Shown: one piece after another, positions 3,897-34,392 of the stretch
Numbering within the stretch: the stretch's first letter is position 1
Layout: every line of letters begins with the position of its first letter
NCBI GenBank assembly: GCA_002416285.1
Contig: DICM01000034.1
Location: 274-64,273 of the forward strand
Source: Bacillales bacterium UBA5026
GTDB taxonomy: Bacteria > Bacillota_I > Bacilli_A > RF39 > UBA660
Reading direction: 5' to 3'
DNA length: 64,000 nucleotides
Translations under genes and position numbers: made by a program
The notes under the pieces: generated by a model
Told to the model about the DNA's origin: nothing
Database searches by the model: none
Seen by the model: the letters and a program-made list of their open reading frames with translations, nothing else

Positions 3897-4352
3897 ATGA
3901 AAAAATTTGTTGTTTTGATGGTTTTACCAGTGTTACTTCTATTAACAGGCTGTGAAAAGGTAGCTGAAGGAAAATATAAAGAAGGAACTTACATGGGACA
4001 TGTAACCGATACTTATGGTGGTTCTAATCAAGCAATCGCAGTAATTCATGTCAGTAAAGAAGGATTGATTGATTCAGTATACTTAGATACTACTTATACC
4101 AAAGATGATGCTGTTACAACAAAGAAAGCGCTTGGAGATGACTACAATATGAAAGCTAATCCAGCGGTTACGAAAGAATGGTATGAACAAGTAGATTTAC
4201 TTGAAAAGGCTGTTATTAAAGAGCAAGGAATCGATTTTATCAATTGGACAGATAGTGAACAATCTAAAACAGATTCTATTAGTGGGGTAACGATTAAGAT
4301 TGATGCTTTGTACCGAGCTTTGGATAGTGCTCTAAAACTTGGGAAAAAATAG
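3897..4352 (+). CDS. FMN-binding-domain lipoprotein (likely ApbE substrate)
   Basis: Lipobox LLLTGC. The C-terminal DSISGVTIK matches the [ST]G[AV][TS] flavinylation motif of FMN_bind domains. Confidence 0.65.
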   Translation: MKKFVVLMVLPVLLLLTGCEKVAEGKYKEGTYMGHVTDTYGGSNQAIAVIHVSKEGLIDSVYLDTTYTKDDAVTTKKALGDDYNMKANPAVTKEWYEQVDLLEKAVIKEQGIDFINWTDSEQSKTDSISGVTIKIDALYRALDSALKLGKK

Positions 4353-4561
4353 GAGCGAAAGCTCTTTTTCAATATGCAGAAATGGATTATTACCTTATCC
4401 CCACACGAAAAGAAATGTTACTATCTATATCAATACGAACAGGCAAAAAAGAAGAATGACATCGTGTTGATGAATTATTATTTAACACTTTTGGAAGAAA
4501 TGAAGGAGAATTTCACAAAAGAATCACATTCATCTGTATAATATAACACAGGAGGGATTAA

Positions 4562-5230
4562 ATGAACGTATTAGTAGTAGATGATGAGGAAGGAATTCGT
4601 CTTGTCATTCGCGAGTATTTAGAGAATGAAGGGTATATTGTTAGTGAAGCCTGTAATGGAACTGAAGCAATTAACCTTGTTAAACAAAACGATTACGACC
4701 TCATTATTATGGATATTATGATGCCGGTTACAGATGGCTTTATGGCGGTAGAAGCGATTAATAAAATCAAACCAATACCTACCATTATGTTGTCTGCTAG
4801 AAAAGAAGAATATGATAAGTTAATGGGATTTGAACTTGGGGTCGACGACTATATGACAAAACCATTTAGTCCTAAAGAGTTAGTAGCTCGTGTTAAGGCG
4901 CTAATGAAAAGAGTCCACCCGTCTCACGGTGACTATTGGTCTTATCAAAATCTTCGGATTGATTTTAAAGCACATGCCGTATTTTTAGCAGATAAAGAGC
5001 TTTCGTTAACACCAAAAGAATATGATTTATTGGTATATTTTGTCGAAAATGAACATATAGCGCTTTCTAGAGAGATTTTGTTAAGTAAATTATGGGGATA
5101 TGATTTCTTTGGAGATGACCGAACAATTGATACACATATCAAAATGCTTCGCAACAATTTAGGACCTTATCGTGATTTGATTACCACGGTTAGGGGAGTA
5201 GGTTATAAATTTGAAATCACAGAAAAATAG
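4562..5230 (+). CDS. OmpR-family response regulator
   Basis: Receiver domain (VLVVDDEE, DLIIMDIMMP, KPF) plus a winged-helix C-terminus (LTPKEYDLL, VRGVGYKF). Confidence 0.9.
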   Translation: MNVLVVDDEEGIRLVIREYLENEGYIVSEACNGTEAINLVKQNDYDLIIMDIMMPVTDGFMAVEAINKIKPIPTIMLSARKEEYDKLMGFELGVDDYMTKPFSPKELVARVKALMKRVHPSHGDYWSYQNLRIDFKAHAVFLADKELSLTPKEYDLLVYFVENEHIALSREILLSKLWGYDFFGDDRTIDTHIKMLRNNLGPYRDLITTVRGVGYKFEITEK

Positions 5231-19449: not shown

Positions 19450-19544
19450 TAGTGTATAAAATTGTAAAGTAGAAGAAAAAATATTGACGTAGTTAAAGTA
19501 TTGTGTCTTTTTTCTTTGACGATTCGGTAAGGGGAGAGAATAGC

Positions 19545-20315
19545 ATGGATAAATTAAATGATATTTTACATGAATTAGGTATTTCAAAGGTCAAATTAGC
19601 AAAGTTTTTAGGTGTATCTAGACAAATGATTTATAATTATTTAGAGTTAGATGATATTAACAAATGGCCTAAGGATAAAAAGGTATTATTACTAAATTTA
19701 CTCGGAATTAAATCTTCAGATGAATTAGATAGTATTAGAATTGATACAGATTATATTTTAAACGTTGAAAGTCGCTTAAATAGTTTGGTTGATTTAAATG
19801 CGAAAAACGAATATGGCGATAGTCTTTACAATGGTCTTGGAAAAAAACAACGTGAACTATTTTCAAATATTATTGCCCTTGTAAAAGATGGATTGGAAGA
19901 TGATTCAGAGGAAAGCTATGAAACCTATAAATATCTTTATCATTTTTTACAGGCACTGGAAAACTCTGATGAACTTAAATATATTTTAGGTTATGTAGCA
20001 AAAGCAAATGGATTTGTAAAACCACTTGAATTTGTATTTGATGAGGAAAATCAATTTATGTTTGAAAGTTTTATGTTCTCTGCTATGACCCTATATCAAA
20101 ATGGGAATGGGGTATCAAAGTCTAAGATTGCGGAATCACATCGTCGTTTTGTAAATCAAATTGAGCATAAAATGGAAGAGAAAATGAGTCGTACATTAGA
20201 ATTAAATGCGGTTAAAGTTCAAGCATTACGAGAACTTGGTTATACTGAAATCAATGAGAAGAATGCTGCTGAAGTATTTGAAAAGATAGCTGAAATTCAA
20301 TCTAGGGGAGTTTAA
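19545..20315 (+). CDS. HTH-domain protein of unknown function
   Basis: N-terminal HTH (ISKVKLAKFLGVSRQMIYNYLE). GGGGAG RBS precedes the ATG at 19545. Confidence 0.6.
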   Translation: MDKLNDILHELGISKVKLAKFLGVSRQMIYNYLELDDINKWPKDKKVLLLNLLGIKSSDELDSIRIDTDYILNVESRLNSLVDLNAKNEYGDSLYNGLGKKQRELFSNIIALVKDGLEDDSEESYETYKYLYHFLQALENSDELKYILGYVAKANGFVKPLEFVFDEENQFMFESFMFSAMTLYQNGNGVSKSKIAESHRRFVNQIEHKMEEKMSRTLELNAVKVQALRELGYTEINEKNAAEVFEKIAEIQSRGV

Positions 20316-20332
20316 TAAAACTTCTTTTTTAT

Positions 20333-20358
20333 TAAAAAAAAATAGGATTTTTCCTATT
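20333..20358 (-). terminator. Terminator after the DUF2726 pseudogene
   Basis: Stem AATAGGA/TCCTATT, loop TTTT, and a long T-run on the minus strand. Confidence 0.6.
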
Positions 20359-20957
20359 CTAAAAACTTTTTACCACAGTTGTTATATTATCATTGATATT
20401 AAACTTTTCTTTCTTTTTAATTCCATCATTTGTTAGAATTCGTCTAATCCGCTCTTGAACATAATTTTTTTCATTCGGCATATTAGTATAATATTTAATT
20501 AGCTTGATATTAGCATTATCGCATATTTGATCCACTTTGTAATCCCTTTTATGTCTTTTAAAAGTATTATGTGTGTACGATCATTGATTTCTATTAATAA
20601 AAGCAAGTCTTTGTAATCAGATGTAAATATTGCAAAGTCGATATTTCGATATAATTCATTCTGATAATGAGACCCAGGTTTATCAATAATAGTTGCCAAA
20701 TTGACTTGTGGCTGTATTACAATATCAAATTCATCTTCCAGTTTTTTGAAAATAGAGTAGAAGTAATATTCAGTTTTTGTCATAAATGGTTTTTTATAAT
20801 AATCCTTTTTTCTTGGTAGAGTAGGTGTTTTATCAATGGAATCATTTGCATAGCTAGATTTTTCTTTCCGTTTTCTTTTGTTATTTTCTGTAATATGTCT
20901 AGCAGATATAAATATCAATAAATATGAACTTACAATTAGTATAGTTATCCATAGCAT
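20359..20957 (-). pseudogene. DUF2726-family (restriction-endonuclease-like fold) membrane protein, frameshifted at an (AC)3 run near 20571-20577
   Basis: The track ORF ends ...LLLLIEINDRTH and then reads out-of-family sequence. The -1 frame continues HNTFKRHKRDYKVDQICDNANIKLIKYY... to a TAG at 20359-20361, completing the D-x-x-H...R-x-x-RD...hydrophobic C-terminal pattern I associate with DUF2726. Confidence 0.65.
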
Positions 20958-21065
20958 CTTATTTTATCATCCCTTCAAAACAACAAACAACATACTACTA
21001 TAACTTATAACAATATTAATTGTAGCATAGAGTTCCTTGATTTAACAGAAGAGAATAAAAAAAGA

Positions 21066-21236
21066 CTAGAACCTTTTACAATTACCGTTACCACAATTAT
21101 TTCTACAATTACCACAACCACCACAGAGGCAATTAAAAATAAAATTAATAAATCCAAATATTAGAACAAATGGAAGAAATAAGAAACAAAATGGTAATAC
21201 AAAGATAAAGCCTAAAAATAATAATAATATACACAT
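21066..21236 (-). CDS. Small Cys-rich hydrophobic peptide (56 aa), not in the ORF track
   Basis: GAGGTA RBS followed by MCILLLFLGFIFVLPFCFLFLPFVLIFGFINFIFNCLCGGCGNCRNNCGNGNCKRF. Confidence 0.4.
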   Translation of the reverse strand: MCILLLFLGFIFVLPFCFLFLPFVLIFGFINFIFNCLCGGCGNCRNNCGNGNCKRF

Positions 21237-21335
21237 AAAAATACCTCTTTTACTATGTTATTTATTATATTAAATGTGGTAGATTTCATTTTGATAATAA
21301 CAGAGAACTATATTAGAAATCAATTTATTTTTATT

Positions 21336-21363
21336 AGTTAACATAATATAGACTAGCGAAACA
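21336..21363 (-). other. attL: hybrid dif-like site (intact XerD arm and central region, degenerate XerC arm)
   Basis: The minus strand reads TGTTTCGCTAG-TCTATA-TTATGTTAACT. The last 17 nt are identical to the dif at 29121-29148, and the XerC arm matches only 6 of 11. Confidence 0.7.
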
Positions 21364-21401
21364 AAAATGTTCTGATAAAATTTTTGAAAGGAGAATAGGG
21401 T

Positions 21402-21533
21402 ATGCTTATTGAAAAAATTACAATATCAAAATTAATTGAAATATTGCAAGAAATGAACGAACAACGAATGCATAGAAATACCGTGCTAGATGTTATAATT
21501 AAAATCAATAAAAAACAGTCAGCTTATGACTGA
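21402..21533 (+). CDS. Small prophage protein (43 aa)
   Basis: AAAGGAG RBS followed by MLIEKITISKLIEILQEMNEQRMHRNTVLDVIIKINKKQSAYD. Below the ORF-track cut-off. Confidence 0.4.
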   Translation: MLIEKITISKLIEILQEMNEQRMHRNTVLDVIIKINKKQSAYD

Positions 21534-21538
21534 CTGTT
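21514..21538. terminator. Shared hairpin between convergent small ORFs (T-run only on the minus strand)
   Basis: 9-bp stem AACAGTCAG/CTGACTGTT with a 7-nt loop. Confidence 0.55.
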
Positions 21539-21562
21539 GCAAACATGCTGCACTTAATATAT

Positions 21563-21655
21563 TTAAATAGAATTATATAATATAATTCCTATTATAATTA
21601 TCAATAGTGCTAGAAAGAAGAATTCTCGAAATTCTTTTTTTATTTTTTCAAACAT
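21563..21655 (-). CDS. 30-aa hydrophobic peptide (type I toxin-like or holin-like)
   Basis: GGAGGTG RBS followed by MFEKIKKEFREFFFLALLIIIIGIILYNSI, then the hairpin terminator. Confidence 0.4.
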   Translation of the reverse strand: MFEKIKKEFREFFFLALLIIIIGIILYNSI

Positions 21656-21720
21656 GTTGCACCTCCAATCTAGAAAAGTCTAAGACTTTTCCCCTAATCT
21701 TAAAATTCTAGATAGGAGTA

Positions 21721-21761
21721 TAGCTAGAGTGTGAGGCATTTTCCCACGAGCACTCTAGCTA
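21721..21761. other. Stable 11-bp hairpin upstream of the 30-aa peptide gene
   Basis: TAGCTAGAGTG - 19 nt - CACTCTAGCTA, unusually GC-balanced for this region. Confidence 0.5.
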
Positions 21762-21767
21762 ATAAAA

Positions 21768-21800
21768 TTTATATAAAAACCTGTACTAGCATTCTTATAT
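21768..21800. repeat. Copy A of a roughly 32-nt direct repeat (internally palindromic)
   Basis: TTTATATAAAAACCTGTACTAGCATTCTTATA. About 28 of 32 positions are identical to copy B. Confidence 0.6.
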
Positions 21801-21802
21801 CA

Positions 21803-21961
21803 TTATTTTTCTAATATTGCGAAAAAGGCATATGGCTGAAATGCATTTTTTGAAATGCTAAAATTTCCTGTTATGATTTTATATCCGTCATTAACTAATT
21901 CATTTAATTTTTTTTCGAATTGTTTTCCTTCGGTTAATAATAAAACTTTTACATCTTTCAT
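21803..21961 (-). CDS. Small prophage protein (52 aa)
   Basis: GAAAGGAG RBS followed by MKDVKVLLLTEGKQFEKKLNELVNDGYKIITGNFSISKNAFQPYAFFAILEK. Vaguely DUF4177-like; flanked by the 32-nt repeats. Confidence 0.45.
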   Translation of the reverse strand: MKDVKVLLLTEGKQFEKKLNELVNDGYKIITGNFSISKNAFQPYAFFAILEK

Positions 21962-21980
21962 TTTTCTACTCCTTTCATTA

Positions 21981-22012
21981 TTTATATAAAAATCTATACT
22001 AGCCTTTTTATA
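21981..22012. repeat. Copy B of the roughly 32-nt direct repeat
   Basis: TTTATATAAAAATCTATACTAGCCTTTTTATA, immediately after the XRE gene stop. Confidence 0.6.
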
Positions 22013-22014
22013 AC

Positions 22015-22245
22015 TTAAATATCTTTTCTTAATAAATCTTTTACTTGAAACTTTTCATTATTTCCAATGAAATAAATTTTATAACCACATTGATTAGCTA
22101 TGTTTTCTAGAGTTTCAAAATTAATGTCTGTTTTTTCTCTCTCATAATCACTTAAAGTAGTTCTTCCGATATTGACTAATTTACTTAGTTTTTCTTGGCT
22201 TAAATGACTGTTTGCTCGCATTTTTTTTATTGCCTTTCCTATCAT
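22015..22245 (-). CDS. XRE/Cro-CI-family HTH repressor of the prophage
   Basis: LSQEKLSKLVNIGRTTLSDYEREK is a canonical HTH_XRE motif. Divergent from the phage forward operon. Confidence 0.8.
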   Translation of the reverse strand: MIGKAIKKMRANSHLSQEKLSKLVNIGRTTLSDYEREKTDINFETLENIANQCGYKIYFIGNNEKFQVKDLLRKDI

Positions 22246-22274
22246 AAGTCCTCCTTTTCTTTATTGTCGCAAAA

Positions 22275-22337
22275 TTCCACAAAAAATACTTGACTTGTGG
22301 AGAAACTCGGAGTAAAATAATACATATAGATGTGGAG
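22275..22337 (+). promoter_or_regulatory. Forward phage promoter (TTGACT-17-TAAAAT) overlapped by three TGTGGAG-type half-sites
   Basis: -35 at 22290-22295 and -10 at 22313-22318. TTCCACA (22275-22281) is inverted relative to TGTGGAG (22296-22302), and a third TGTGGAG lies at 22331-22337. Confidence 0.6.
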
Positions 22338-22363
22338 TTATTCGACATCAGTAGGAGGAAAAA

Positions 22364-22645
22364 ATGAGAAAAATAAATAGTACAATAATTAATGCAGAAT
22401 TAAAACAAATACCAAACGAGAAAACAGGTGTTGTTAATGAATATACAACGGTAAAATATACCATGGAGCGAGAAAATAGCGATATTGCTGTTGGAGTTGC
22501 GATTATGGAATGCTGGATACCTAAGAATTGTCTTGATGCGATTAAAGGCTACATCATGAAACCAGTTCAAATGGAACTTAGAGAAATCTTTAATGATAAA
22601 GGTTGTAAATTTCGAATTTCAAAAATAAATAACAATGCAATTTAA
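22364..22645 (+). CDS. Prophage protein (93 aa); candidate ssDNA-binding protein by position and size only
   Basis: AGGAGG RBS. It is the first gene of the forward operon, where gene V sits in the circular map (Rep - attP - regulators - this gene - coat genes). Confidence 0.45.
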   Translation: MRKINSTIINAELKQIPNEKTGVVNEYTTVKYTMERENSDIAVGVAIMECWIPKNCLDAIKGYIMKPVQMELREIFNDKGCKFRISKINNNAI

Positions 22646-22880
22646 TGTTTTAGTTACTTACCGAAAACCGAATGGGAAAACACTTACTAGAGAATTGAGT
22701 AGCTGTGATTATAGAGTAGGGCATATCAACTCTTACGGTTGGGAAGTAATTGAGATACAAGTATTTTATCAAGGAAAATATATGCAACTAGAAACGTTTG
22801 AAAGATTACGTTACCAATATGACTATGAACGTCATAAAAAGAAGAGTATATTTTCTAAGTTTTCCAAAAAAAACAAATGA
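22635..22880 (+). CDS. Prophage hypothetical protein (81 aa)
   Basis: Its start overlaps the end of the upstream gene (22635 vs 22645), consistent with translational coupling. No recognisable motif. Confidence 0.45.
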   Translation: MQFNVLVTYRKPNGKTLTRELSSCDYRVGHINSYGWEVIEIQVFYQGKYMQLETFERLRYQYDYERHKKKSIFSKFSKKNK

Positions 22881-23423
22881 TGATAAATGTAATATGGGTG
22901 GTTAATTTTAAATGCTAGTAAAGGTTTGAAATTGAATAAAAATTATAAGTTAGTATTATAGCACTCCAATCTAGAAAATCACACAAGACTTAAATTTAAA
23001 GTACCTACTTACTATACTTTCTTAAAATCTATACAAGATTAGCAAAATACTTCGCTTATAAATAGGGTAAATAATAGGGAATTACATTATTATCAAAACT
23101 AAAAAAGGTTATCACAAAAAATCAGCAAGATATTATGCCGAGAAAATTATTTAAAAAAAGTCGTTTTTGATAAGCTGAAAGGCTAAAAAGATGCGAAACA
23201 TCAGAGGCATACCTCTTGATGATAGCAATCCACTTGTTACATCTTTAAAATCAAAAAAACGGTTACTTTTTTAAAATAAGGAATTGGAATAAATCAACAA
23301 GAAAAAACAAGATAACCTTATCGTTCAGCGAACGGGGTAAAATTTTGCTCAAGGGCTTAGCGAAGAAAAAACTTTCTACAATTTCTATAAGAAAAAGATA
23401 TTTTGAAAAGAGGGGAAAAACTT

Positions 23424-23567
23424 ATGACAGAAGTGCAGGCAACAACATTACTAGAAGAAATTACAACAATGAGAATCTTGCTTCAAGGAGTATGTGGAAT
23501 CTTAATGCTTGTGGTATTAGTAGCTGTAATATATGCCTTCTATAAGTTTTTCAAAATATTCTTTTAA
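23424..23567 (+). CDS. 47-aa coat-like membrane protein (minor or alternative coat)
   Basis: AGAGGGG RBS followed by MTEVQATTLLEEITTMRILLQGVCGILMLVVLVAVIYAFYKFFKIFF. Acidic N-terminus, TM core, basic tail. Missing from the ORF track. Confidence 0.5.
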   Translation: MTEVQATTLLEEITTMRILLQGVCGILMLVVLVAVIYAFYKFFKIFF

Positions 23568-23593
23568 AAAAGAGTGGAAAGGGGTTTTGAAAA

Positions 23594-23761
23594 ATGGAAG
23601 GAACAACTTCAATTTTTGACGGAGCTATCACATCAGCTACATTACAACCTGTTTTAGACGGTATTAAAGAATTACTACCAGTAGTAATTCCAGTAGCAGT
23701 AGGATTCTTAGCATTCCGTAAAGGTTGGTCATTTGTAATGTCAACCGTAAAAGGAGCGTAA
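23594..23761 (+). CDS. 55-aa putative major coat protein (Pf3-like architecture, no signal peptide)
   Basis: MEGTTSIFDGAITSATLQPVLDGIKELLPVVIPVAVGFLAFRKGWSFVMSTVKGA. Acidic N-terminal part, hydrophobic core of about 20 residues, and basic residues (R, K, K) in the C-terminal tail. Missing from the ORF track. Confidence 0.6.
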   Translation: MEGTTSIFDGAITSATLQPVLDGIKELLPVVIPVAVGFLAFRKGWSFVMSTVKGA

Positions 23762-23797
23762 GCTCTTCTTATAATAAAAGAAAGGACGTGAAGAAAA

Positions 23798-25423
23798 ATG
23801 AAAAAATTACTATTTGTAACAATCATTGCCTTCATGTCTTTTTTCTATATAGATAATGTAAACGCAGAAGAGATACAACATTTTACTTTGAATTATGATA
23901 ATCAAGAATTTAATGTTGATATACCTGTTAAATATTTACAAAATAATTATATTGGTACAATGTCTAAAAATAGTTCTACTGGTTCTTATCTTTTTCGATT
24001 ATTTTATGATTTTAATTATGTGGGTTTACGTTATTCAACAAGTGGAACGCAAAAAGATATTTCTTTTTATTTTAAAGATACTTCTGATGCAATAGATTCC
24101 GGTTCTGTAAATGCTTTAATTTATAATTTTACTACTAAAACATTTACAGAAGATTCTGGTGTTTATATTCCACGTTTTGCTTTAAATGATGAAATAACTG
24201 ATAATTATGTTCCCGTTGATTTTTTTATAAAATATGATAATAAAATTTATTTGGATGGGAGAAATATCAATTCTAATTTAACTTATAAAATAAATAATGT
24301 TGATTATAAAAAAGGTGATGAAGTTTTCTTTGGTGGTTCTTCAATAAGATTCGGTATTGTTGACTCAGAAACGGAAGTTATAAATGGAATAACTTATTAT
24401 AAGTCTAAAACAGTTCGTATGACATTGCAAGGAAAAAACAATACGAAATATTATTATGAATATACAACAGATAATGGAGCGAGTTGGATTACATTGTTAC
24501 TTACTCAAAAAGATTATTTTGATATTAAGTTTACTACAAATACAGTTTTGTTAGTAAGAATACGAGAACGTAATACGTTTGATGTGTTAAATGATTATAC
24601 ATTTACACTTTCCGGAATTGCGACTGACGAACTTACTAGTGAATATGAAGAAATTCCTTTAAGAGGGCATGAGGGTATTATTCTCTATGCAAAAAATACT
24701 TATCAAGATTTAATTTCTACAGTATATATGGAAACAGGAAATATCCATGTTACAAAATATTCAAATGGTAAAATTGTACAGCAAATGAGGGATATTGCAG
24801 TAGATTTTCAAGTAACATTAGGTCCACGCGATACAGATTATTATTTAATAAAAAATAATGATACAAGTATTAATACCGTATTACGCGTTTTGAAAGATAA
24901 ATTTGCTTATTATTATTTGAATGACGCGCTTAGTACGATTACAATTGAAAATCCAAATACGGGAGAGGCAGAAGTATTAGGGAGCATTTATGAGAGCGAA
25001 CAATACTATAAAGACCATGTTGAACAGGATTCGGACGTAGTTGAAAACAACTGGTTATTGAAAATCTTAAAAATGGCATTTGTTCCGGACTTAAGCGCGT
25101 TTAATAATTTAGTATCTATGTTTAACCGAAAGTTTGGAATCTTTTCACAGTTGGCAAGTACATTACCGGATTTGTTCCAGTTTGGGGGAGAAGACCCACC
25201 CGAATTTAATATGACAATTTACGGAACTACTGTTAATATTGTTGACTTTTCAGCATTTGAAATTGTACGTACATTCTTACACGGACTCATTCTCGCATTC
25301 GCATGGTATGGATTTATAAGACGTTGTTATGAACGAGCACCAGCATTTATAGGTGGATTCTTTAGCTTTGAACGTGCTGTTGGTGATATTTCTGTACCAA
25401 GTTCAAAAGGGGGTAAAAAATGA
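23798..25423 (+). CDS. Secreted 541-aa protein with a C-terminal membrane anchor (pIII-position adsorption/minor coat candidate)
   Basis: Signal peptide MKKLLFVTIIAFMSFFYIDNVNA/EE and a C-terminal hydrophobic helix LHGLILAFAWYGFIRR. Lies directly downstream of the coat-like genes. Confidence 0.55.
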   Translation: MKKLLFVTIIAFMSFFYIDNVNAEEIQHFTLNYDNQEFNVDIPVKYLQNNYIGTMSKNSSTGSYLFRLFYDFNYVGLRYSTSGTQKDISFYFKDTSDAIDSGSVNALIYNFTTKTFTEDSGVYIPRFALNDEITDNYVPVDFFIKYDNKIYLDGRNINSNLTYKINNVDYKKGDEVFFGGSSIRFGIVDSETEVINGITYYKSKTVRMTLQGKNNTKYYYEYTTDNGASWITLLLTQKDYFDIKFTTNTVLLVRIRERNTFDVLNDYTFTLSGIATDELTSEYEEIPLRGHEGIILYAKNTYQDLISTVYMETGNIHVTKYSNGKIVQQMRDIAVDFQVTLGPRDTDYYLIKNNDTSINTVLRVLKDKFAYYYLNDALSTITIENPNTGEAEVLGSIYESEQYYKDHVEQDSDVVENNWLLKILKMAFVPDLSAFNNLVSMFNRKFGIFSQLASTLPDLFQFGGEDPPEFNMTIYGTTVNIVDFSAFEIVRTFLHGLILAFAWYGFIRRCYERAPAFIGGFFSFERAVGDISVPSSKGGKK

Positions 25424-25674
25424 TAGTAACGATTATTATTAACCTTTTATTAGCACTTCCAACATTTTTACTTTCATTACTTCCGGATAATGTAGTAACT
25501 CTTCCAGATAATGTATTTAATATTATGCATGAAGTATTTTATGGGATTGGTTATGTGTTACCTATGGCTGGACTAGCTTCAATTATGGTAATTTCTACAG
25601 CGCTTATTGGAATGCAAATAACTTGGTCTATTATTTTGAGGATTAAGTCTTTTATACCAACAATGGGGGCATAG
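25420..25674 (+). CDS. 84-aa polytopic membrane protein (pVI position)
   Basis: Overlaps the upstream stop (ATGA). Has 2-3 TM segments. Confidence 0.5.
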   Translation: MIVTIIINLLLALPTFLLSLLPDNVVTLPDNVFNIMHEVFYGIGYVLPMAGLASIMVISTALIGMQITWSIILRIKSFIPTMGA

Positions 25675-25765
25675 TGCGTTGTTATTATGCGAACTTTAAG
25701 AGTTTAGTATTTGTTTATGTATTCGTGTACGTGAATAATTCCTAGGGGGTATTTTTTAAACCGCC

Positions 25766-25785
25766 ACACACGGAGTGTGTTTTAT
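25766..25785 (+). terminator. Weak internal terminator/attenuator between the structural and assembly genes
   Basis: ACACAC-GGA-GTGTGT followed by TTTTAT. Confidence 0.4.
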
Positions 25786-25811
25786 ATAGATTTTAGTTAG
25801 GAGGTAGAACT

Positions 25812-26657
25812 TTGTTAGTAGGATTTATAGGAGTATTAAAAATGCTCTTTGAATTAATCTTATGGTGTATTAAATGGGTAGGTATTGCACTTTTACCGAT
25901 TGTTATTATGATGATATATTTCTATATTCATTATTATATAAAAGGTTATCGTATGAAACCACGTACTACACCAGTTTATAAAAAACCGTCTTTCTTTAAA
26001 CGGCTTCTTATACAGTTTCCCAAGCGATTTATATTAGACCTCTTTGCACGTGACCCCGACGCATTTACGGATTACGGGGTGCATTTGGTCTGTGGAGAGC
26101 AGGGAAGCGGGAAAACTATGACGGTTGTCTATTTACTTCAAGAATATCAAAAACGGTTTCCTAAAATGAATGTGAAAACGAATTTTAATTATTTGAAACA
26201 AGACGATGAAATAACGCATTGGCGAGATATTGTATTTTCAAATAATGGAATCTATGGAGAAATTGACGTTTTAGACGAAATACAAACGTGGTTTAGTTCT
26301 ATGCAGTCACTCAATTTTCCAGTTGAAATGTTGCAAGAAATATCACAACAACGTAAACAAAGAAAAGCAATTTATGGAACAGCTCAAGTGTTTACAAAAA
26401 TAGGTAAGAGTATTCGGGAACAGACAACCTTTTTGTATCTTCCGATTACAATCGCAGGTTGTCTCACAATATGTCGAAAGTATGCCTTAAGACTTGATTC
26501 CGAGGGTCAGATTAAGGAAAAACATTTAAGACGAACATTTTTCTTTGTTCATACGGAAGAGCTTAGAAATAGCTATGATACGTATAAAAGAATCGAACGT
26601 TTGGCAAAAGACGGTTTTAAAGAGACAATTACAGATAAGATTATAGAAAGTAGGTAG
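25812..26657 (+). CDS. Membrane-anchored P-loop NTPase (pI/Zot-position morphogenesis ATPase candidate)
   Basis: N-terminal TM, Walker A GEQGSGKT, Walker B IDVLDEIQ. TTG start after AGGAGG; an alternative ATG lies at 25842. Confidence 0.6.
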   Translation: MLVGFIGVLKMLFELILWCIKWVGIALLPIVIMMIYFYIHYYIKGYRMKPRTTPVYKKPSFFKRLLIQFPKRFILDLFARDPDAFTDYGVHLVCGEQGSGKTMTVVYLLQEYQKRFPKMNVKTNFNYLKQDDEITHWRDIVFSNNGIYGEIDVLDEIQTWFSSMQSLNFPVEMLQEISQQRKQRKAIYGTAQVFTKIGKSIREQTTFLYLPITIAGCLTICRKYALRLDSEGQIKEKHLRRTFFFVHTEELRNSYDTYKRIERLAKDGFKETITDKIIESR

Positions 26658-26662
26658 ATTTA

Positions 26663-26863
26663 ATGACAAAAAAAGAATTTCTTAGTGATTTTATACATTA
26701 TTTAATTTTTACAGTTTTGTTTTTAATTTTGTTTAAAATCTTTAAGATTAAATTTTATGCCGTTGGTTATATTGTTAGTTTTGTTTTAACTTGTTCTAGT
26801 TTAGTTTATCATATAAAAATGTTATATCGTGAATATAAACTAAAAAAAGTAGAAAGTAGGTAG
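26663..26863 (+). CDS. 66-aa membrane protein
   Basis: Two TM segments. Preceded by the junction motif GAAAGTAGGTAG. Confidence 0.45.
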   Translation: MTKKEFLSDFIHYLIFTVLFLILFKIFKIKFYAVGYIVSFVLTCSSLVYHIKMLYREYKLKKVESR

Positions 26864-26868
26864 GTTTT

Positions 26869-27132
26869 ATGGTTGATGGTTTTGAATTTATAGTTTCGTG
26901 CGTTTTTTGTTTTACTTTGGGTACTGTATTTGGTGGAACTTTTGATTATAAAAAAACGTATTCAAAATATGATAAACTTAGAAATTTTTATAATTTTCTA
27001 AAAGTAAATGGTTATATTGTCGCAAAAAGCGAAAAAGAAATTGTACTTGCTTTTTTGAAAAAAGAAGAATCACAGCATGAAACAATTTGTAATGAAGTTA
27101 AATATAAAATGTTTAAGGATGATGTTTTATGA
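26869..27132 (+). CDS. Prophage hypothetical protein (87 aa)
   Basis: N-terminal TM. Preceded by the junction motif GAAAGTAGGTAG. Confidence 0.45.
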   Translation: MVDGFEFIVSCVFCFTLGTVFGGTFDYKKTYSKYDKLRNFYNFLKVNGYIVAKSEKEIVLAFLKKEESQHETICNEVKYKMFKDDVL

Positions 27133-27347
27133 TAGAAGAACGTCTGAAAGAAAAAATTGACTTGGTTTTATTCGATTATTATTTTAATAATAAATTATCA
27201 TGGTTTGATAGTAAAATTATTGATTTTTTAGTAAGAAAAAAGAAGTATAAGGATTATGCCTTAATTCGTATTAAGTATTACATACGACAAGTCAAAAATG
27301 ATAATTTTTGGAGTCTTCTAGTCTCGCTAGACCATGTGCGTGCCTAA
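27129..27347 (+). CDS. Prophage hypothetical protein (72 aa)
   Basis: Its ATG lies within an ATGA overlap with the upstream stop. Its 3' end runs into the GC-rich island. Confidence 0.4.
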   Translation: MIEERLKEKIDLVLFDYYFNNKLSWFDSKIIDFLVRKKKYKDYALIRIKYYIRQVKNDNFWSLLVSLDHVRA

Positions 27348-27405
27348 TGTTTCCGGGGTCCCAGTGGGAGTTTGGAAACATGGGCCGGAAATGGGTCCCA
27401 AAATA
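27320..27405. other. GC-rich structured island (nested inverted repeats, GGGTCCCA x2)
   Basis: ATGTTTCC (27347-27354) pairs with GGAAACAT (27374-27381). TTTCCGG (27350-27356) pairs with CCGGAAA (27385-27391). GGGTCCCA occurs at 27356-27363 and 27393-27400. Confidence 0.55.
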
Positions 27406-27427
27406 GGTTGAAAGTAGGTGATTTTGA

Positions 27428-27625
27428 ATGAAAAAGAATTTAATGCTACAACTTCTTTTAGATTTTCTATTTTTGGCTTTAGCAATCGCAATAATTCTAT
27501 GGCTTAAAAACATGTTTGTAACTATTACACTTTTATTGTATTTTGCTTTCTTACTGTTTGTTGATTTCTGTAATTTTCGGAAAGCAAAGAAGCAAAAATC
27601 GACTGTAGTTGATATAGTTGAGTAA
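27428..27625 (+). CDS. 65-aa membrane protein
   Basis: Two TM segments. Preceded by TGAAAGTAGGTGA. Confidence 0.4.
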   Translation: MKKNLMLQLLLDFLFLALAIAIILWLKNMFVTITLLLYFAFLLFVDFCNFRKAKKQKSTVVDIVE

Positions 27626-27722
27626 TTATACCAGGTCATCAAAGACTAAATACTATACAAAACAAGATAATTTACAGTATAAAAGCGATAAATTAACGTA
27701 TTTAAAAGGACTACAAGGAACA

Positions 27723-27745
27723 CCGGCGCGTCGTGAGACGCCCGG
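27723..27745. other. GC-rich hairpin with a GTGA tetraloop just upstream of the Rep ATG
   Basis: CCGGCGCGTC-GTGA-GACGCCCGG (9 bp plus one bulge) in an otherwise AT-rich context. Confidence 0.55.
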
Positions 27746-27800
27746 ATGTTCTTTACTTGATAGTAGTCTCATATCTCCACACCCCTTAAAAGTTTATTCC

Positions 27801-28748
27801 ATGAAAATAATTGAAACTGGCGATTTTATAGAAGTTTATGATTATAACGATATTAAAACTCGAAAAGATGTAAACTTTGAAAAAATTGAACGAAAAAAAA
27901 TAAAAGGAATTAAACGTAGCTTTGAAACAAAAGAAATAGGAAAGTGGGGGAGTCATTCTACATTATTAGAAAATGGTTCTATAACATTTATTAATTATCA
28001 AAAGATTCAAACGAAGTATGCTTTAGAACATATGAATAATGAAACGTTTGTAATTCGCGATTCTGTTCCAAAAGAAAAGAAAATTGAGCTGAAGAATATT
28101 CTTCGTAGTAAGTTTGCTATGGAACGTATTGTAAAAGCAAATATGAATGAATTTAAAACATTTATCACATTAACATTTGCAGAGAATATCATTAATATTG
28201 ATGAGGCAAATAAAAAGTTCGACACATGGCGAACTCATATAAAAGCATTAAAAAGAGACTTTAAATATGTCTGTGTTCCGGAATTTCAAAAGTTAAGAGA
28301 ACGAAAAACCGGATATGCAGTAGTACATTATCATTTACTAACTAATTTAGACATAATTAAAGACTCGGATATTATTATATCACAAAAAGAATTTACAGAA
28401 AAACAGTTGCTAGAAATGAGCGGACGGCAACGTAGTAAATGTTATGATGTACGTTATTGGAATTATGGCTTTGTTAGAGTCGATACATTAAAAGATATGA
28501 ATGTAGTAGGGTATATATCAAAGTACATGACGAAAGACATAGATAATAGGCTTTGGGGAAAACGACGTTATCTATATAGTCAAAATTTAAAAAAACCTAG
28601 TGTATCATATTTAAACTTTAGTAATATTGAAGATTTTAAACATTATGTAAATAATTTGAATGGCTTTGAATTGAATTTTGAAAAGGTGTATGCTGATAAA
28701 TTCGGACAGGCAATAGAATATAAAGAATACAAGAAAGTAGGCGCTTAA
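27801..28748 (+). CDS. HUH rolling-circle replication initiator (Rep)
   Basis: Motif I FITLTF, motif II (HUH) VVHYHLLTN, motif III GYISKYMTKD. The track ORF extends to a TTG at 27618, so the N-terminus is uncertain. Confidence 0.7.
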   Translation: MKIIETGDFIEVYDYNDIKTRKDVNFEKIERKKIKGIKRSFETKEIGKWGSHSTLLENGSITFINYQKIQTKYALEHMNNETFVIRDSVPKEKKIELKNILRSKFAMERIVKANMNEFKTFITLTFAENIINIDEANKKFDTWRTHIKALKRDFKYVCVPEFQKLRERKTGYAVVHYHLLTNLDIIKDSDIIISQKEFTEKQLLEMSGRQRSKCYDVRYWNYGFVRVDTLKDMNVVGYISKYMTKDIDNRLWGKRRYLYSQNLKKPSVSYLNFSNIEDFKHYVNNLNGFELNFEKVYADKFGQAIEYKEYKKVGA

Positions 28749-28942
28749 TGAAAAAAATGCTGTTATTAATTGTAATTATCATTTTATTCACCGGATGTAC
28801 TTTTAAAAAATGTATAAAGTCTCATGAAATAGAAACTACTTGTACGAAATATACTTATATATCAAACGGAAAAACACTTTTTGCCGTTCCGGTTGATAAT
28901 TACTCATATGTTAAAACTGTTTGTGATGAATATGAAAAATAA
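28748..28942 (+). CDS. Small prophage lipoprotein (64 aa)
   Basis: Lipobox ILFTGC. Preceded by AGAAAGTAGGCGC; its ATG abuts the Rep stop (TAATG). Confidence 0.55.
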   Translation: MKKMLLLIVIIILFTGCTFKKCIKSHEIETTCTKYTYISNGKTLFAVPVDNYSYVKTVCDEYEK

Positions 28943-28959
28943 AAGGAGAAAAATTCAGT

Positions 28960-29103
28960 ATGTATAAAATCGAAATGCAAGACTTAACTACAAAAGAGAT
29001 ATTTAGTCGAGTTACAGATAGTCTGTACAAAATAGAACGTCTCAAAAAGAGATGTAGATATTCTAAGAAAGTTAAAATAAGAGCTATTACAAAGTTAACA
29101 TAA
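28960..29103 (+). CDS. Small basic prophage protein (47 aa)
   Basis: AAAAGGAG RBS followed by MYKIEMQDLTTKEIFSRVTDSLYKIERLKKRCRYSKKVKIRAITKLT. Last gene before dif. Confidence 0.4.
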   Translation: MYKIEMQDLTTKEIFSRVTDSLYKIERLKKRCRYSKKVKIRAITKLT

Positions 29104-29120
29104 ATTTAAGAATATATATT

Positions 29121-29148
29121 AGTTAACATAATATAGATTATCGGAAGT
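29121..29148 (-). other. dif: Chromosomal dif site (XerC arm - 6-nt centre - XerD arm), serving as prophage attR
   Basis: The minus strand reads ACTTCCGATAA-TCTATA-TTATGTTAACT. This matches 24 of 28 positions of the B. subtilis dif as I recall it (ACTTCCTAGAA-TATATA-TTATGTAAACT). It lies at the point where the gene-strand bias switches. Confidence 0.8.
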
Positions 29149-29877
29149 TATTGATGTGCTTACATTTAAGTGCTATTATATTGCTTTATACTATAAAAAT
29201 TAGCTTTTAAATCGTTCAATTATTCCAATATAATACTTAATATTATGTTTATCCATTATGATATGCTTATCTAGAAATATGTACTAAATAATATAAATGT
29301 CTTGTTCAGTTAAATAATAATATAAATAATAATATTTCTATATTCAACAATTCATTATATTTACTACATATACACTTAGTCATACATTTCATTGTCCTAA
29401 ATCCGTTTATTAGAATATTTTTTCAATTTCAATATAAATTATTACTTCTATCCTATAATTAAAATAATTTGAGCTGATAAGTTATTCACTAAGATCTTTC
29501 TCGAATGCTCTCAGAACGCCTATCAAAACACTTTAATATAAAATACTCAAATACCTTGCTACACACAATGAGGTAAAATAATAAAATTAACTTATAATTA
29601 AATTATAAAGTAGGGGAAATAGATTGGAAAAGAGCAGAAAAAAATTTTAACTATTCCCTACTTTTTAAATTAATAACTTAACATAATTTATTTGTATCTA
29701 AAGCAGATTATTTATCTTATCTATAAATCTATCTATATTGTTTTTAAAACAAATAGGAAGGAGATTTAAGCTTGTTTATTAGATCTACTCTACCCTAGTT
29801 TCAATCGTTTCTTAACTCCCCTACTTGTAATTTTTCATAATTCGTCATTCTTTTTCATATTCTTTAATGGTGATAAT

Positions 29878-30621
29878 ATGGACAAGATTATGTTTCCGTT
29901 TATTCTAACAAGTTTAGCTGGTTTATCAACAATGATTGGGTGTATCTTTCTTTATATAAAGCCTAAAAAAGAAAATCATGTCATTATCAGTGGTCTATCA
30001 TTTGCCGCTGCAGTAATGATAACTGTTTCTTTTACAGATTTATTACCTGAATCTTTTAGCTTACTTAAAATGATTTATAAACCATTTCCAATGGTAATTT
30101 TAGTGTTAATATCATTAAATATTGGAATGTTGATATCATTCTTATTGGATAAATATCTTCCAAACCAGGAGGAATCTCTTTATCGTGTAGGTATTATCTC
30201 TATGTTAGCTATTATTATTCATAATATTCCTGAAGGTATTGCAACCTATATGGCTGGATCAACCAATACTAATTTAGGAATTACATTAGCTGTTGCTATC
30301 GCATTACATAATATTCCTGAAGGTATCAGTATTTCTATTCCAATTTATTATGCAACAAAAAGTAGGAAAAAAGCACTATTATATACTTTTATATCCGGAT
30401 TATCAGAACTATTTGGTGCTATATTTACCTATTTATTTTTGAAATCATTTATTAATAATCAAATACTAGGATTCCTGTTTGCGGGAATCGCAGGTATTAT
30501 GTTACATATTGCACTTTATGAATTATTACCAACTGCTTGGAAATATAAGAATAAAAAATTAGTATATTTATTTTTTCTTATAGGGTTCTTATTTATGCTC
30601 ATTAATCATATTATTTTTTAA
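29878..30621 (+). CDS. zupT: ZIP-family zinc transporter ZupT
   Basis: The HNIPEGIA / HNIPEGIS motif occurs twice, with about 8 TM segments. Confidence 0.85.
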   Translation: MDKIMFPFILTSLAGLSTMIGCIFLYIKPKKENHVIISGLSFAAAVMITVSFTDLLPESFSLLKMIYKPFPMVILVLISLNIGMLISFLLDKYLPNQEESLYRVGIISMLAIIIHNIPEGIATYMAGSTNTNLGITLAVAIALHNIPEGISISIPIYYATKSRKKALLYTFISGLSELFGAIFTYLFLKSFINNQILGFLFAGIAGIMLHIALYELLPTAWKYKNKKLVYLFFLIGFLFMLINHIIF

Positions 30622-33495: not shown

Positions 33496-34392
33496 CTATT
33501 CTCCATGTGGATGGTAAGTTTGATAATTTTGCTCTAAAAAATGGTCTGATAAGTGAGTATAAATCTGTGTAGTTGAAATATCGGTATGTCCCAGTAATTC
33601 CTGAACACTTCTTAAATCAGCGCCATTTTCTACAAGATGGGTTGCAAATGAATGCCGTAAAGTGTGTGGTGACAATTCTTTTTTTATGCCTTGCTCTGTT
33701 GCAATCTGTCTCACTATTTTAAAAAATGCTTGTCTTGTCATCGAACTTCCTCGACTACTCAAAAACAAATCATCATTAAGCTCTCTTTTCAAAAGTTGAC
33801 TACGATAATCCACAAGATAGATTGATAGGGCTGCTAAAGCATAATCGCCAATTGGAATAATCCGTTCTTTATTTCCTTTACCGAATACTTTTACAGTCGC
33901 CATCTCTAAATTCACATCATGAACCTTTAAATGAATTAGCTCACTAATTCTAAGTCCAGAAGCATACATCAATTCAAGCATGGTTTTATTTCTAAAATCA
34001 TATTTGGTTTTTAATGGAAAACTTAATAATTTATCTACTTCCTCATGCGTAAGCACTTTAGGAAGTACCTTTTTTAGTTTTGGTTGAGCTATCCCATCAA
34101 TTGGGTTTTCCTTTGTAATTTTTTCAATCTTCAAATATTTATAAAATTGTCTTAGTACTGTTAATTTATGTGCAATACTTCGCTCATCATTTTTCATTAA
34201 ATCCAAGTACTTAAGGTAGTTTCGAATAACTGTTTTATCAATTTGTTCAAGTGTGTTCAAATTCAATTTATCTAAGAATTCAATAAATTGATCCAAATCG
34301 TTTTCATACGATTTTTTTGTATTCACACTGTATTTGCGATCAATTAATAAATAATTTAAAAAGTCTTGTTCCAATTCTTTTATCATATTCAT
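33496..34392 (-). CDS. xerD: Tyrosine site-specific recombinase, XerD/XerC type
   Basis: 298 aa. Catalytic pattern: GLRISEL (Arg), HTLRHSFATHL (H-x-x-R), LLGHTDISTTQIYTHL (His and Tyr). Confidence 0.85.
   Translation of the reverse strand: MNMIKELEQDFLNYLLIDRKYSVNTKKSYENDLDQFIEFLDKLNLNTLEQIDKTVIRNYLKYLDLMKNDERSIAHKLTVLRQFYKYLKIEKITKENPIDGIAQPKLKKVLPKVLTHEEVDKLLSFPLKTKYDFRNKTMLELMYASGLRISELIHLKVHDVNLEMATVKVFGKGNKERIIPIGDYALAALSIYLVDYRSQLLKRELNDDLFLSSRGSSMTRQAFFKIVRQIATEQGIKKELSPHTLRHSFATHLVENGADLRSVQELLGHTDISTTQIYTHLSDHFLEQNYQTYHPHGE

Follow-up and report, generated by a model that had tools for sequence, protein, structure and literature searches.

To our knowledge, nearly all work on IMEXs has been done in Vibrio, Xanthomonas and Neisseria, and FtsK-type Xer activation is not established in Bacillota. 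Our literature search returned no described IMEX from Bacillota and none exploiting the Xer system of Bacillus subtilis, and a survey of inoviruses does not discuss dif (PMC6813254). The closest described architecture is that of the PM2-like double jelly-roll prophages of Vibrio and Pseudoalteromonas, dsDNA corticovirus-like elements of gamma-proteobacteria whose 17-bp "left-armed" attP consists of an XerD arm and a centre and is adjoined by a gene for XafT/P15 (DUF3653) (PMC12715192). DUF3653 is the domain of XafT, which TLC-phi of Vibrio cholerae needs (PMC6744903). The double-stranded attP of TLC-phi and of the gonococcal genetic island (GGI) has one good arm, that of XerC, a divergent XerD arm and a fully matched centre, giving a complete, in principle reversible crossover that rebuilds a functional dif; for the GGI, a stabilising effect of the poor arm on integration has been proposed (PMC5357621, PMC6744903). 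The centres of VGJ-phi and CTX-phi diverge on the XerD side and only the XerC strands are exchanged, VGJ-phi having both arms and a centre that matches on the XerC side only (PMC5357621). The CTX-phi attP is a single-stranded DNA hairpin of two inverted sites and its integration is irreversible.

We analysed a stretch of 64,000 nucleotides, below called the window, in which the segment 21336-21363 is probably the repressor-side phage–host junction of a 7.8-kb integrase-less filamentous phage, integrated by recombination of a half-site attP with dif through the host XerC and XerD. The locus has features of an IMEX, being inserted at the chromosomal dif with dif-like direct repeats at its bounds and no recombinase of its own, in a host with both XerC and XerD. 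Like the PM2-like prophages, the element has no integrase, its attP shares only the XerD arm and the 6-bp centre with dif, a canonical dif is regenerated at one junction, the att site lies beside a leftward repressor operon, and both polarities occur within the group. Unlike them, it is an inovirus of uncultured gut Bacilli, without DUF3653 and with no conserved small gene at att.

The likeness to the double-stranded attP classes of Vibrio IMEXs drawn in a preliminary description of this DNA thus needs a narrower form: the site equals the 17-bp left-armed attP (PMC12715192) and is neither of the VGJ nor of the TLC type, but the mirror of the latter. It shares with TLC-phi and the GGI a double-stranded attP in which one arm is good and the centre matches fully, the rebuilt dif and, as we propose, the complete crossover, but the arms are reversed, with the XerD arm matching at 11/11 positions and the XerC arm at 6/11; where XerC anchors a TLC site that lacks an XerD arm, the anchoring proposed here is by XerD. 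The TLC-like polarity is found in four relatives, not in the window phage. VGJ-phi likewise is filamentous, integrates at dif from a double-stranded attP and leaves behind a dif that can still be used, but here the centre matches at 6/6 positions and the XerC arm is essentially absent. CTX-phi is also an integrase-less inovirus using XerCD at dif. A CTX-like hairpin attP was considered and rejected, as the XerD-arm copies at the locus all lie on one strand and there is no inverted copy with at most one mismatch. The dif of Bacillus subtilis, served by CodV/RipX, is of the same 28-bp Bacillota type with XerC- and XerD-class recombinases, but it is a plain chromosomal system. The half-site attP principle is thus already known from Vibrio and relatives; new here are the host group, gut Bacilli, and its use by inoviruses without XafT.

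The two att sites and the empty site

On the minus strand, positions 21363 to 21336 read TGTTTCGCTAG-TCTATA-TTATGTTAACT and positions 29148 to 29121 read ACTTCCGATAA-TCTATA-TTATGTTAACT. The hybrid site is composed of an XerD arm (21336-21346), a centre (21347-21352) and an 11-mer at the XerC position (21353-21363); the corresponding parts of the Rep-proximal site are at 29121-29131, 29132-29137 and 29138-29148. Our re-reading agrees with the preliminary description in that the XerD arms and centres are identical and the XerC arms match at 6/11 positions, a match that barely exceeds chance (P(≥6) = 0.05 with random 11-mers from the prophage). The identity runs 4 nt (AATA) past the XerD arm, so that the direct repeats, at 21332-21352 and 29117-29137, are 21 nt long. 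The 17-mer TCTATATTATGTTAACT, covering the centre and XerD arm, has exactly two copies in the window, against 0.06 expected, and exactly two in the source assembly, a 1.5-Mb metagenome-assembled genome (MAG) with 72% completeness. The dif consensus of 25 related genomes is ACTTCCTATAA-TNTATA-TTATGTTAACT; the site at 29121-29148 fits it and, judged by this consensus, is the canonical dif of the host clade. The cumulative GC skew has its maximum near 29 kb of the window, in agreement with a replication terminus there.

The borders of the element were resolved by an empty site. An exact-match scan of metagenome contigs with a pattern of the centre, the XerC arm and the right flank returned one contig (L086, 1,804 nt) from a strain with approximately 95% identity. 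Its positions 1-572 align to 29708..29117 of the window (94% identity) and positions 543-1804 to 21361..20099 (96% identity), and the two flanks are joined through one site only, ACTTCCGATAA-TCTATA-TTATGTTAACT, after which the contig reads AATAAAAATAAATTG. This fixes the ancestral dif sequence and the prophage borders, the unit being 7,785 bp (21353..29137, plus strand), and identifies the DNA to the left of 21336 as host, the host flank extending up to the XerD arm of the hybrid, and TGTTTCGCTAG as phage DNA. As the dif in L086 is identical to 29121-29148, integration left the dif at the Rep end unchanged, which bears out the earlier claim that a fully canonical dif is regenerated at the right end. 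A search of viral and metagenome contigs for an exact match to the junction 26-mer found none.

Some minor features were seen around the two sites. A 51-aa TTG-start ORF (21353-21508, minus strand), probably spurious, has its TAG stop within the phage 11-mer at the XerC position; by comparison, the attP of XacF1 is inside an ORF (PMC5666396). In three related genomes (G001, G002 and G024) a ZupT gene is found on the XerD side of dif and an HTH gene on the XerC side, and in the window (19503-20315 and 29878-30621) these sides are swapped, the block of dif and ZupT being inverted. L086 has the same inverted order, which is thus native to this species and no misassembly.

The phage end next to the canonical dif contains further copies of the XerD arm. 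A perfect copy of TTATGTTAACT is found at 29093..29103 (minus strand), 28 nt start-to-start from that of dif; 23 nt beyond it, at 29070..29080 (minus strand), lies a third copy, TTATTTTAACT, which has one mismatch. All three copies of the perfect 11-mer in the 1.5-Mb assembly belong to this locus, and the extra arms were not seen in the related phages. They may be fossil attP half-sites or additional XerD-binding sites, and the half-site attP model leaves them unexplained.

Gene content and host Xer machinery

Gene scans and the empty site delimit an element that, by its gene content, is an integrase-less inovirus-like prophage. An XRE-family repressor (22015..22245, minus strand; PF01381, 8.7e-13, and PHROG scan) lies approximately 650 nt from the hybrid junction. 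The plus strand encodes a Zot/pI-like P-loop morphogenesis ATPase (25812..26657; Zot match weak, phrog_197 at 1.5e-5), whose homologues in related loci are annotated as PF05707, and a rolling-circle replication initiator, Rep (27618..28748; PF23343, 3.8e-16; phrog_3419), with 1257 homologues. Further genes on this strand include a 93-aa gene kept across the phage family, a 541-aa secreted protein, a small lipoprotein and two hydrophobic genes of approximately 55 aa, called coat-like from their size and hydrophobicity only. The rolling-circle Rep, the Zot/pI-type ATPase with its weak match, the small hydrophobic coat-like genes, a length within 5-10 kb and a gene set lying mainly on one strand are those of an inovirus (Tubulavirales). 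A comparison of the whole prophage with annotated phage records gave no match, and no other record had an identical Rep protein.

The Pfam and PHROG scans of the ORFs detected no recombinase gene within the element, and all matches to PF00589 in the genome are outside it. Nor did we find DUF3653, the domain of XafT-like activators, in the ORFs of the element or in the genome, or a conserved small gene adjoining att when related loci were compared. A 52-aa ORF between the repressor and att (21803..21961, minus strand) matches no family, and none of the related loci has a homologue of it; it is thus not demonstrable as a Xer activation factor.

The host is a member of a family of uncultured gut Bacilli with small genomes (0.8-1.6 Mb), to which some records give the label "Tenericutes". 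Its xerD (33496..34392, minus strand; TIGR02225, 351.5 bits, above the cut-off of 329.6) is 4.3 kb from the prophage, XerC is encoded on contig C10 (TIGR02224, 335.5 bits), and an FtsK with a gamma domain is present. In this 72%-complete MAG, the tyrosine recombinases are only three: XerD, XerC and an integrase on contig C19. There, a second Rep-like gene (G000:C19:1180-4355, L018), 44% identical and interrupted by a stop codon, adjoins the integrase of 361 aa; the C19 element looks like an integrase-type relative of the phage, and no dif-like site was found near it.

Related prophages and their polarity

Rep has 1257 homologues in the protein collection; 42 loci were found in species genomes, and 29 of the 401 host-family genomes contained matches. 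We compared the att sites of prophages with both ends on a single contig and, for G002, on two. The flanks of these prophages are not unrelated sequences: 12 others, from different genera of uncultured gut Bacilli, have the same half-site layout (13 with the window: G002, L037, L038, L040, L042, L043, L045, L046, L047, L062, L064 and G404). With Rep on the plus strand, a canonical dif lies 50-1000 nt downstream on the minus strand, and a site 5-10 kb upstream shares its centre and XerD arm but has an unrelated 11-mer at the XerC position. The centres vary by host (TCTATA, TATATA, TACATA, TTTATA and TGTATA) but are identical within each pair, and the phage centre thus tracks that of its host.

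The XerC position was scored in 11 of the 13 pairs, leaving out L042 and G404. The phage 11-mer matched the XerC arm of its own host at a mean of 4.45/11 positions (range 1-8), against 3.06 by chance. The innermost base differed in 10 of the 11 pairs, so the identity ends exactly at the XerC cleavage position, the boundary between arm and centre. The inner A-T-A was somewhat enriched, being found in 7, 6 and 7 of the 11 pairs at the three positions where approximately 36% is expected by composition. A common "phage-type" XerC-arm consensus was looked for among the 11 phage 11-mers and none was visible. The "degenerate XerC arm" of the preliminary description therefore holds as a divergent phage 11-mer, as L086 confirms for the window, but, with the XerC position near random across the family, "half-site attP" is the better term.

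The double-stranded attP proposed earlier, with a host-like XerD arm and centre and an unlike XerC position, is carried by the relatives and also by three episome-like contigs. These are L080 (7,751 nt, with a complete gene set), the IMG/VR contig L078 (5,829 nt) and L081 (7,309 nt), each having one site of the attP kind, in which the XerD arm is perfect, the centre is of host type and the XerC position has 6-7 mismatches. The ends of L080 and L078 overlap by 29 and 21 nt, respectively, and the overlaps coincide with the att sequence; this suggests branching of the assembly graph at att, with more than one form of the junction, and would fit circular or tandem forms.

In three of the relatives, the repeat runs 51-104 nt past the XerD arm with 94-99% identity (4701-4784 and 10817-10900 in L046, 4948-5026 and 11333-11411 in L047, and 4264-4395 and 11157-11288 in L062). 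Tandem arrays were considered for these and rejected, as the identity ends after 51-104 nt and the DNA beyond is host, encoding a ZIP transporter among other host genes. The attP region of these phages seems to include a copy of host dif-flanking DNA.

The mirror half-site was found in four relatives (L041, L067, G254 and G072), and L039 and G255 probably are of this type as well. In these, the XerC arm and centre are identical to dif and the XerD arm diverges; with respect to the phage genes, the site has an inverted orientation. Whichever the type, every case has the rebuilt canonical dif at its Rep end and the hybrid at its repressor end. The two types are intermixed in the Rep tree and, while this is poorly resolved except for a few branches, the well-supported ones force at least two changes of polarity. 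A direct comparison of the XerD-armed and mirror 17-mers showed differences at only four outer-arm positions, and a polarity switch is thus a short mutational step.

Proposed integration mechanism and alternative explanations

Reasoning from established Xer biology (PMC5357621, PMC6744903, PMC9226527), we propose that the phage attP copies the 6-bp centre and the 11-bp XerD arm of the host exactly, and that its XerC position would consist of ordinary phage sequence in which the inner ATA survives as a vestige at most. The complex on attP would be anchored by arm-bound XerD, which would recruit XerC by protein–protein cooperativity. A crossover in the centre would join the host XerC arm to the phage centre and XerD arm, giving an unchanged dif at the Rep end, and would also join the phage 11-mer to the host XerD arm, giving the hybrid at 21336-21363. 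The rebuilt dif would retain dimer resolution and leave the site reusable. The fully matched centre would permit both strand exchanges, making the reaction conservative and in principle reversible, and the poor XerC position would make the hybrid a weak partner for dif, such that the prophage is not lost in each round of dimer resolution. Xer-dependent integration, a circular form and excision are predicted for this phage. Of the earlier expectation that the site would tell the order of strand exchange and the capacity for excision, the possibility of a complete, reversible crossover stands with the 6/6 centre, but XerC-first or XerD-first is unreadable from the sequence.

An alternative is that the phage 11-mer does serve XerC as an arm, though one of low affinity, and that recombination proceeds XerC-first as in VGJ and CTX, with one strand pair exchanged and the Holliday junction resolved by replication. 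The 6/11 match seen in both the window and G002, together with the inner A-T-A kept in 6-7 of the 11 pairs, above the proportion expected by composition, leaves room for a weak but real XerC recognition. Moreover, the XerC-first pathway has no activator requirement (PMC6744903) and none was found here, an absence that counts against the half-site model since the half-site IMEXs TLC and PM2-like have one. On the other hand, the family mean is close to chance and some members match at only 1/11 positions, the base beside the XerC cleavage point differs in nearly all pairs, and relatives of the mirror type within the same phage family lack an XerD arm. The VGJ and CTX centres diverge on the XerD side (PMC5357621), but here, as in TLC and the GGI, the centre is identical at 6/6 positions in every pair, which favours a complete, reversible crossover. 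Taken together, we regard a low-affinity XerC arm as unlikely.

The 21-bp repeat could also be the att core of another recombinase acting in trans, such as the tyrosine integrase on C19, with the overlap with dif being incidental. The third tyrosine recombinase of the genome does adjoin a second Rep-like gene, but the repeat consists of the centre and XerD arm of the clade dif and stops, in most relatives, where Xer cleaves, the pattern recurs in relatives from many genera with their own dif variants, mirror elements use the other arm, and the C19 element has no dif-like site nearby; we consider such an origin very improbable. A chance match or an artefact of assembly would be conceivable as the source of the repeat in an AT-rich genome known from an incomplete MAG, but we give this almost no credence, given two observed copies against 0.06 expected, the exact empty site in an independent metagenome contig and the same pattern in 12 other independent loci. 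Recombination of a half-site attP with dif by the host XerC and XerD thus remains our preferred reading.

In small-genome gut Bacilli, the locus provides a border-resolved example that comes with an empty site and with 16 related att pairs from other genomes, and it extends the logic of half-site attP, in both polarities, to another phylum and to inoviruses without XafT. For MAGs, it offers a practical rule by which to place prophage borders at dif, and the 17 bp with any flank make a simple substrate for asking how recombinases of the CodV/RipX type get activated. More tentatively, the relatives may represent an inovirus family, widespread in uncultured gut Bacilli, that integrates at dif with a single arm and the centre, using either arm with at least two polarity switches, and does so without a Xer activation factor; we see this as possible rather than probable. 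If true, the XerC/XerD of Bacillota (CodV/RipX-type) would recombine a half-site with dif unaided, and such phages would be a natural handle on Xer control in Bacillota.

Four loci (L037, L044, L058 and L060) have phages and a Bacilli-type dif in MAGs labelled as Muribaculaceae, labels that probably reflect binning contamination. In one genome, two Rep matches of equal score lie 2.8 kb apart (G136:C13:18342-19202 and 21132-21992) and may represent a tandem or duplicated small element.
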